Shown piece by piece: positions 49,125-50,333 of a stretch of DNA of 64,000 nucleotides (positions within the stretch are counted from its first letter, which is position 1; each line of letters begins with the position of its first letter). A model generated the notes under the pieces. It had not been told where the DNA came from, made no database searches, and saw nothing but the letters and a program-made list of their open reading frames with translations. The translations under genes and the position numbers were made by a program. This stretch comes from Escherichia coli (GTDB taxonomy: Bacteria > Pseudomonadota > Gammaproteobacteria > Enterobacterales > Enterobacteriaceae). Location: assembly GCF_041886205.1 (NCBI RefSeq), contig NZ_CP169029.1; one strand, given 5' to 3'.

Positions 49125-50333
49125 TTAATTGCTCATGGCTTTGAACTCATCGCTGCTGATACAGATATCCGAAATATCTTTATTCGTCACCAGACGCGGG
49201 CTGAGTTTATCGCCTTCAACAAACGGTACTAGCGGGCAAAATTCCCCTGGAGACGCTTTATCTTCCTGCCACTGAATTTCAATGGATTCCGGCTCCATGC
49301 CTGGTTTCTCTGACTGAATGACTGTGCGGATATCCGTGGTTAACTGAAATGGCTCACACCCCTCCACATCAGTAAAAGTCGGCGTCAGATGACCATTCTT
49401 ACGTTCCTGCAGATAAAAAATGCGGCCATCGTGATAGGAAGGAATTACGTAGCAGGTATACATTTTACCTTTACTTAGCACTGGCTGAAGATAACTTGAG
49501 CCGCTGTCGATCAATTCAACCTCTTTACCCTTCCAGCGATAAACGTCTATTCCGTGACTACAGCAACCGCCTCGCCAATGGCTGACGATCTGCTTATATT
49601 CTGCATCCGGCTCCGGCGAGGTGATTTCCTGATAAGACGCAGGCGCATCAACAAAACGTTGTGTTGAGGGATCGTAAAGCCAGGTTTGTTCGGGGATATT
49701 GGGTCCAGCGGGTAACTCTTGCGGAATGGAAAGATCCGGATAACCATCAAAATTAACATCCTCCCATTGAGGCGTAAAAATGCTACAAGTGCCGATAGAA
49801 GCAGTATATAAGGTCTGTATCGGTTTCCCATCACGATATAATTTTATTGCTGAAATGACCGGAACATTATTACAGTCGATCGCTTTGGTAGGGTCGTAAT
49901 CGTCATTCACTTCCGCCACCAGCACCAGATCAATGCCCGGATCGTTTTTGGGTTTGTTATAGTGAAGTGCTATGGGGAAATGGTGTTTTTTATCGGCTGA
50001 AGTCCATACACCTTTTATCTCAATCGGTGAAACTTCAGCATCCCATTGACCAGAAAGTGTCTGTGCGCGCTCCTCAAGAAGCAGCCGCTCAACCTGGAGA
50101 GATCCTCGCAGAATTAATCGCATTTTTCTCTGATTGCAGGGTTCATAGCAATAGCTACCATGAAGGTCGTTGTTAATCCGCGTAATATCGACACTTACCT
50201 GCTTACCCGCAATCGTCCCGGTATAATTTCGATCCCAGAACGAAAATTCAAGCTGCGAAGCGCCATTGGCCGCTCCCAAACAAAATACAAAAGCCAAAAA
50301 TCCCGCCAATCCATAAGCTATCTTGCTCATCAT
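49125..50333 (-). CDS. Hypothetical secreted cysteine-rich protein, 402 aa, inserted between ispH and rihC (absent at this position in K-12)
   Basis: GGAGG RBS, signal peptide [24 protein letters not shown], clean 402-codon ORF 19 nt upstream of rihC; no recognisable family. Confidence 0.75.

Follow-up and report, generated by a model that had tools for sequence, protein, structure and literature searches.

A gene in the ispH-rihC interval

We analyzed a 64,000-nucleotide (nt) stretch of Escherichia coli DNA from contig NZ_CP169029.1 (referred to here as the window). Between ispH and rihC it carries a gene for a 402-amino-acid (aa) protein that K-12 does not have. The protein is a three-domain member of the XAC2610 (X-Tfi) superfamily. 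It is catalogued in Pfam as DUF8339, a family that is uncharacterized. The positions of the gene, its start signals, its neighbors, and the parts of its product are collected in Table 1.

The open reading frame (ORF) is not a chance one, because the protein has full-length homologues (E values from 1e-271 to 1e-54), the ratio of nonsynonymous to synonymous divergence (dN/dS) of the gene is 0.17-0.31, which indicates purifying selection, and the product has a confidently predicted structure. This was an AlphaFold model built on 57 homologues (pLDDT 91, pTM 0.83), and structure prediction was one of the checks proposed in a preliminary description of the sequence. Therefore, the gene is real. 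The preliminary description had placed it, with its own ribosome-binding site, between the ispH terminator and rihC, had noted only a short gap in K-12, and had reported a different RihC N terminus. The ORF, the GGAGG, the hairpin, and the 19-nt spacing are all present, which bears this out. The GGAGG is 5 nt from the first ATG and 8 nt from the second. The Prokaryotic Genome Annotation Pipeline (PGAP) start is the second ATG, at 50330, for a 401-aa product (WP_000034172.1).

In K-12 the spacing between ispH and rihC is 65 nt, and RihC begins MRLPIFLD, unlike its N terminus here. Homology to K-12 stops right after the ispH stop codon and picks up again at approximately rihC codon 3. Comparison with the 1313-nt segment revealed no recognizable remnant of the gene in the 72-nt spacer of K-12, so a deletion cannot be reconstructed. 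The hairpin downstream of ispH resembles an intrinsic terminator, and approximately 20 nt remain from it to the start codon of the 402-aa gene. The same hairpin is upstream of the Salmonella orthologue, and K-12 has a different terminator. There is no terminator between the 402-aa gene and rihC, so the two are probably co-transcribed. No sigma-70-like promoter was found on the gene's strand from 48900 to 50800. The simplest reading of its expression would be transcription together with rihC, either as read-through of the ispH operon or starting at a promoter within ispH.

Table 1. Positions in the window of the 402-aa gene, its surroundings, and the parts of its product
Feature	Position	Strand	Remarks
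CDS, 402-aa XAC2610-related/DUF8339 protein	49125..50333	-	Stop codon 49125-49127
Ribosome-binding site GGAGG	50339..50343	-	Sequence reading
Hairpin (CCAGCA-loop-TGCTGG) and T run	50354..50392	-	Hairpin 50392..50364; directly 3' of ispH stop codon
ispH	50406..51356	-	Upstream neighbor; K-12 homology ends exactly at its stop codon
rihC	48185..49105	-	Begins 19 nt after stop codon of 402-aa gene
Segment of 1313 nt	49093..50405	.	Replaces 72 nt of K-12
rihC-dapB tract	47000..49100	.	94-95% identical to K-12
Sec-type signal peptide, approximately residues 1-24	50262..50333	-	Sequence reading; low-pLDDT helix 6-19
N-terminal 8-stranded up-and-down beta-barrel, residues 27-125	49959..50255	-	Carries conserved CYEPC
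Central XAC2610-like domain, approximately residues 135-310	49404..49931	-	
NF047539 match within central domain	49506..49769	-	NCBIfam
Calcium-loop motif DVNFDGYPD (DxNxDGxxD), residues 192-200	49734..49760	-	Counterpart of XAC2610 residues 151-159
Loop LPAGPNIPE, residues 207-215	49689..49715	-	Counterpart of XAC2610 loop predicted to enter GH19 active site
C-terminal beta domain, residues 311-402	49128..49403	-	Conserved C326, C366, and C391

The product is a three-domain XAC2610-related protein

The preliminary description recognized no family, which can now be corrected. The NCBIfam model NF047539 "XAC2610-related" (XAC2610_fam) matches residues 189-276 with an E value of 7.5e-26 and 90.4 bits, and its curated cut-off is 35 bits. 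Nine complete E. coli genomes carry the gene; RefSeq names the product "XAC2610-related protein" in eight of them and hypothetical protein in the ninth. Our local Pfam-A library had no match for the query protein, but it appears to be without the PF27031 (DUF8339) model. Precomputed PF27031 matches are present on a 96%-identical protein (P0001) and on all 50 homologues. Searched alone, the protein had no match in PDB (single-sequence search), PADLOC, or PHROGs. With a profile of 57 homologues, the best PDB sequence match was XAC2610 (4qtq_A), in an alignment spanning the calcium loop (DVNFDGYPD versus DINGDGHED) and the CC-x-H motif. The 402-aa protein also matches the fold of the XAC2610 crystal structure. 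A search of 1.8 billion cluster representatives returned approximately 30 clusters at E values up to 1e-30, mostly of the full three-domain form, and several hundred weaker matches, many of them approximately 200-250 aa long with the central domain only. We found nothing relevant in the literature on STM0050 and DUF8339. The family, the fold, and the concept of orphan immunity have been described already; this three-domain member is new and uncharacterized.

UniProt lists an identical protein (A0A8T5ZHQ7) as "Nitrite reductase," and some GenBank records use the same name. We rejected this candidate. Propagated names are all that favors it, whereas there is no Pfam or NCBIfam nitrite-reductase match (NirK, NirS, NirB, or NrfA), no reductase, cupredoxin, or siroheme domain, and no CxxCH heme motif. 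The fold matches XAC2610 and beta-barrels and no reductase. A nitrite reductase is already contradicted by these results, and the name, which has spread misleadingly through UniProt and GenBank, is almost certainly wrong. UniProt applies it to the whole family. Several of the Salmonella entries have only 127-331 aa, and these fragments could stem from assembly artefacts or, in some serovars, from pseudogenes.

By sequence reading, the N terminus has the layout of a Sec-type signal peptide, with MMSK, a hydrophobic stretch, and A-N-G followed by A, and the likely cleavage site is after A-N-G. AlphaFold models this region as a low-confidence helix (residues 6-19). The same kind of signal peptide can be read in 56 of the 57 aligned homologues, and the other (P0044) is without its N terminus. 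A lipobox check, as proposed in the preliminary description, found none in the N terminus by the same reading, and the stretch FVFC does not qualify as one. Ten cysteines are present in the mature part, each kept in 89-100% of the 57 homologues. C154 and C183 are lost jointly in five sequences, and C257, C258, C294, and C326 are lost jointly in two. This pattern fits five disulfides, one set of which would staple the central domain to the C-terminal part. The pairings that we predict are C62-C66, C154-C183, C366-C391, and two among C257, C258, C294, and C326. Together, the signal peptide, the ten conserved cysteines, and the loss of cysteines in sets suggest a protein that is exported and very probably disulfide bonded, in agreement with what had been proposed before. 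An exported, cysteine-rich protein might be a secreted toxin or adhesin. However, we found no toxin or adhesin domain and no secretion-signal domain, a partner immunity gene is absent, and the domain to which the protein is homologous is that of an inhibitor. This makes a toxin or adhesin highly improbable.

Within the central domain, five of the nine positions of the calcium-loop motif are invariant in the 57 homologues, and two more are at least 90% conserved. The loop stretch LPAGPNIP is present and highly conserved. The C-terminal beta domain matched no named family.

Some relatives of the protein are encoded beside GH19-type effectors

In Xanthomonas, the type IV effector XAC2609 has a GH19 peptidoglycan-hydrolase domain, and XAC2610 is the periplasmic immunity protein that inhibits this domain (PMC10933484). 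Its calcium loop (residues 151-159) stabilizes the protein, and another loop (residues 165-173) is predicted to enter the active site with Tyr170, for which a Y170A substitution was tested in a peptidoglycan-hydrolysis assay (PMC10933484). The XAC2610 of Xanthomonas citri (X-Tfi; PDB 4QTQ), which belongs to a bactericidal type IV secretion system (T4SS), and the 402-aa protein are alike in the DxNxDGxxD loop, the CC-x-H motif, and periplasmic export. However, XAC2610 has 267 aa, is without the N-terminal barrel and the C-terminal domain, and is encoded beside its effector. The two are only approximately 20% identical, and the 402-aa protein has neither a lipobox nor a counterpart of Tyr170. 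Tsi1 of Pseudomonas aeruginosa and PliI-Ah of Aeromonas hydrophila have a beta-propeller-like topology in common with XAC2610 and inhibit by loop insertion (PMC10933484). Tsi1 and PliI-Ah, which inhibit peptidoglycan hydrolases, have no sequence relationship to the 402-aa protein and are not among its top structural matches.

We fetched the loci of relatives from species-representative genomes. In Stutzerimonas kunmingensis (L053), the gene order is VgrG (TIGR03361, E value of 2e-207), a 772-aa effector, and a 286-aa protein with a signal peptide (9914-10774), whose start codon overlaps the effector stop. The C-terminal 213 residues of the effector resemble GH19-type endolysins (PDB 9ms7, E value of 1.8e-29; phrog_181, E value of 5.8e-42) and also match GH19 chitinases with weaker E values. 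The 286-aa protein belongs to XAC2610_fam (E value of 7.8e-19) and aligns to residues 37-260 of the 402-aa protein (E value of 4e-17), which cover the barrel and the central domain. Like the 402-aa protein it has a signal peptide, an N-terminal barrel, and an XAC2610 domain. Unlike it, it has no C-terminal domain, has a tyrosine at the loop position, and is translationally coupled to an effector.

This arrangement is not confined to Stutzerimonas. A GH19-like domain ends just upstream of an XAC2610-like gene at L044, L045, L047, L048, L052, and L063 as well as at L053. In two Burkholderia species and one Massilia species (loci L007, L042, and L026), the three-domain form has a GH19-like domain within 1-2.5 kb, beside VgrG. 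Phage GH19 endolysins, including the Salmonella phage endolysin 4ok7, are homologous to the effector domains that are paired with the relatives. Therefore, the link between the XAC2610 family and GH19-type secreted toxins is reproduced in this analysis by the Stutzerimonas, Burkholderia, Massilia, and other loci. The 811-aa Burkholderia effector had no Pfam, NCBIfam, or PDB sequence match and only PHROG endolysin matches (E value of 7.7e-7), so the GH19 assignment rests mainly on the Stutzerimonas effector.

Some other features of these loci were observed. The VgrG-linked effectors at L053 (7599-9917), L007 (3829-6264), and L026 (11973-14273) have approximately 770-810 aa and combine N-terminal M23-like motifs (HGG[IV]H, YSLYMHL, and H[LV][HE][FL]) with the C-terminal GH19 endolysin-like domain, located at 9276-9914 in L053 and at 5401-6261 in L007. 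The M23-like N terminus has only insignificant matches (Pfam E values of 2.6 and 8.1; MepM E value of 0.058), and this domain is unproven. Each of the three loci also has additional small signal-peptide ORFs, which could encode a second immunity protein. In Burkholderia sp. F1 (L007), the DUF8339 gene product as annotated begins with 40 residues that closely resemble the start of the PAAR gene immediately downstream (8001-8120 versus 9526-9650). This looks like a duplicated PAAR 5' fragment, possibly the footprint of a cassette exchange, and the true start of the DUF8339 gene is probably an internal Met before the signal peptide. Comamonas testosteroni (L033) has two tandem DUF8339 gene copies of 439 and 451 aa by crude ORF calling.

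The gene is probably ancestral at this locus

The preliminary description took the gene to be inserted between ispH and rihC. Related genera argue otherwise. The Salmonella enterica orthologue (P0005; DUF8339, often named "nitrite reductase") is 69% identical, has the same three domains, and occupies the same position between ispH and rihC, 15 nt from rihC. The orthologue is next to ispH in Citrobacter and Enterobacter, and the order in Entomohabitans is ispH, rihC, and the orthologue. Between E. coli and Salmonella, the synonymous divergence (dS) is 1.22 for the 402-aa gene, 0.96 for ispH, and 2.08 for rihC; dN/dS is 0.17 for the gene and 0.04-0.07 for its neighbors. Because the outgroups carry the gene by ispH, and the flanking genes have a similar dS to Salmonella, its presence there is probably ancestral and the K-12 state derived, so that "inserted" is probably the wrong polarity. 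The gene is probably old, vertically inherited, and relatively fast evolving in enterobacteria, rather than an insertion.

The Salmonella orthologue is widespread (its 90% cluster has 4762 sequences), whereas among 5426 complete E. coli genomes the gene is present in only 9 and the short K-12-type junction in 5415. The preliminary description had also considered a common core gene merely lost in K-12. That is half right, because the gene is widespread at this locus in Salmonella but rare in E. coli. The gene is intact in all nine carriers, which have two alleles approximately 2.5% apart. Its near-universal absence from E. coli, together with the truncated Salmonella entries in UniProt, might indicate a decaying relic without a present function in E. 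coli. However, a relic is very unlikely, with the gene intact in nine of nine carriers across two such alleles, a dN/dS of 0.25 within E. coli and 0.17 against Salmonella, and the conserved cysteines and the calcium motif all kept.

Sequence 4-9 kb away (40-43 kb of the window) is 99.8-100% identical to K-12, in contrast to the rihC-dapB tract (Table 1). The two E. coli carrier alleles are separated by a dS of 0.29 in rihC, a high value within a single species. The tract is probably the recombination tract that brought the gene in, and the difference in identity suggests that a lineage retaining the gene passed it back through homologous recombination. In another Escherichia-type contig, the flanks are mostly 92-99% identical, but the allele has only 74-79% nucleotide identity in the 5' half of the gene, and dS is approximately 1.0 in the barrel versus approximately 0.12 in the flanks. 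Therefore, very old alleles persist in Escherichia.

The gene is not mobile, judging from tblastn searches in which plasmids yielded only one Burkholderia replicon of 3.2 Mb and phages yielded only a Salmonella genome contig and contigs of 1.4-4.2 kb labeled as phage. Among these short contigs of the phage collection, "Escherichia phage ECO95 1-6-1" and "Salmonella phage S.Kent 1-2-1" have Salmonella-like copies of the gene. These copies are probably host DNA, transduced or contaminating, and not phage genes.

A possible orphan inhibitor of GH19-type toxins

With moderate confidence, we propose that the 402-aa protein acts in the periplasm as an orphan inhibitor of muramidase toxins of the GH19 type. 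The cell would make it in the absence of a partner toxin, and Sec would export it. The mature protein would then be periplasmic, stabilized by calcium, and stapled by disulfides. There it would bind and block incoming peptidoglycan hydrolase toxins of the GH19 type (endolysin/chitinase-like), injected by the type VI secretion system (T6SS) or T4SS of competitors. The NF047539 match, the profile match to 4qtq_A, the relatives beside GH19 effectors, and an intact gene under purifying selection all support this reading. Continued inhibition of such an enzyme by the E. coli protein, and the choice of enzyme, are points that we infer. We classify the protein as an orphan and not as half of a pair because its neighbors are ispH and rihC and adjacency to a toxin is found only in relatives. 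There is a precedent in t0732 of Salmonella Typhi, which is XAC2610-like and belongs to an islet proposed to confer orphan T6SS immunity (PMC7400221). Going by its description, t0732 is also an enterobacterial XAC2610-like gene without an effector, but it is a different gene at a different locus, inside an eight-gene islet. If the proposal is true, the gene would be a chromosomal, partner-less defense against the cell-wall-degrading toxins of competitors. It could add to the differences between Salmonella and E. coli in surviving contact-dependent attack, being widespread in one and nearly extinct in the other. This would not open a new kind of biology, but uncharacterized DUF8339 gains a testable function.

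Several observations weigh against the proposal. No effector or secretion-system gene is adjacent in E. coli, Salmonella, Citrobacter, Enterobacter, or Entomohabitans. Of approximately 33 three-domain loci, only 3 have an effector with a GH19-like domain nearby, and at these 3 the gene is either convergent or separated from the effector by other small ORFs. At L090, a related metagenomic locus, a phospholipase D is the adjacent VgrG-linked effector. In other genera, most of the three-domain loci have unrelated, nonconserved neighbors, and crude ORF calling and clustering of 37 loci, in which the high-GC loci yielded many spurious ORFs, found no conserved neighbors except in the ispH region of enterobacteria. 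Another atypical feature is the putative inhibitory loop. Its closing residue is Tyr in 51 of 68 short relatives (75%) and aromatic in 60 of 68, and it is Tyr or His in 40 of 59 three-domain relatives, but here it is Glu215. In Salmonella it is Val, and the loop is further altered (LLAGPDAPV versus LPAGPNIPE). By profile alignment, Tyr170 of XAC2610 is in an insertion without a counterpart in the 402-aa protein. Furthermore, long retention at a housekeeping locus with a dN/dS of 0.17-0.31 is atypical of an immunity islet, and the two extra domains are explained by nothing. It is because of the neighbors, the loop residue, and the Tyr170 insertion that our confidence in orphan immunity is no higher and that a diverged periplasmic role is its main rival.

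In that rival explanation, the same fold has a new job, having drifted in enterobacteria to a housekeeping role in the periplasm. For example, it could bind or restrain a cell-wall enzyme of the cell itself, or its avidin-like barrel could bind a ligand. The stable ispH/rihC position across genera, with purifying selection, would be expected of such a role, as would the tight coupling to rihC, at spacings of 19 nt in this strain and 15 nt in Salmonella. The additional barrel and C-terminal domains, and the loss in the Escherichia/Salmonella clade of a loop residue that is usually aromatic, also suit it. However, 5415 of 5426 E. coli genomes manage without the gene, its neighbors are not conserved outside enterobacteria, and no match points to a ligand or an enzyme partner. 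The pair of barrel and XAC2610 domain also occurs in the canonical effector-immunity module of Stutzerimonas. We consider a housekeeping role possible, although unlikely.

The orphan inhibitor might instead be directed at phage GH19 endolysins, or at lysozyme-like enzymes of a host or plant, and not at secretion-system effectors. The homology of the paired effector domains to phage endolysins such as 4ok7, and the topology that XAC2610 has in common with the lysozyme inhibitor PliI (PMC10933484), make this conceivable. Even so, it seems improbable, because all of the context evidence that we found points to VgrG-linked effectors, there is no PADLOC match, there is no Pfam lysozyme-inhibitor match, and a PliC match is weaker than generic avidin-like matches. 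The known lysozyme inhibitors Ivy, MliC/PliC, PliI, and PliG gave no family-model or specific structural match to the 402-aa protein.

A broader version of the proposal, which we consider doubtful, is that the three-domain DUF8339 protein is a standing, effector-independent periplasmic shield, kept by enterobacteria at a housekeeping locus, with domains that neutralize different lytic modules. The XAC2610-like domain would block a GH19 muramidase, and the barrel or the C-terminal domain would block an M23-like peptidase or another enzyme. The target modules would be those of bifunctional T6SS effectors and possibly phage GH19 endolysins. The divergent N-terminal barrel alleles in Escherichia would then be long-maintained specificity variants.

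Other segments of the window that differ from K-12

Four more segments of the window differ from K-12. One, at 57084-63590, is a 6.5-kb segment absent from K-12, which has IS1A there between rpsT and nhaR. It includes a 473-aa ORF (57303-58724). A chaperone-usher fimbrial operon at 59026-63727 encodes a subunit (177 aa), a chaperone (227 aa), an usher (816 aa), and an adhesin-like protein (319 aa). Between apaH and folA, 1.44 kb absent from K-12 (24644-26087) contains two ORFs, at 24691-25290 (199 aa) and 25326-25775 (149 aa). At 16741-16860, approximately 119 nt are in place of the 1.5-kb yabP-yabQ region of K-12. Finally, positions 1-783, next to thiB/sroA, have no K-12 match and are annotated in RefSeq as encoding a pentapeptide-repeat protein; the full segment is present in approximately 1033 of 5426 E. 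coli genomes.
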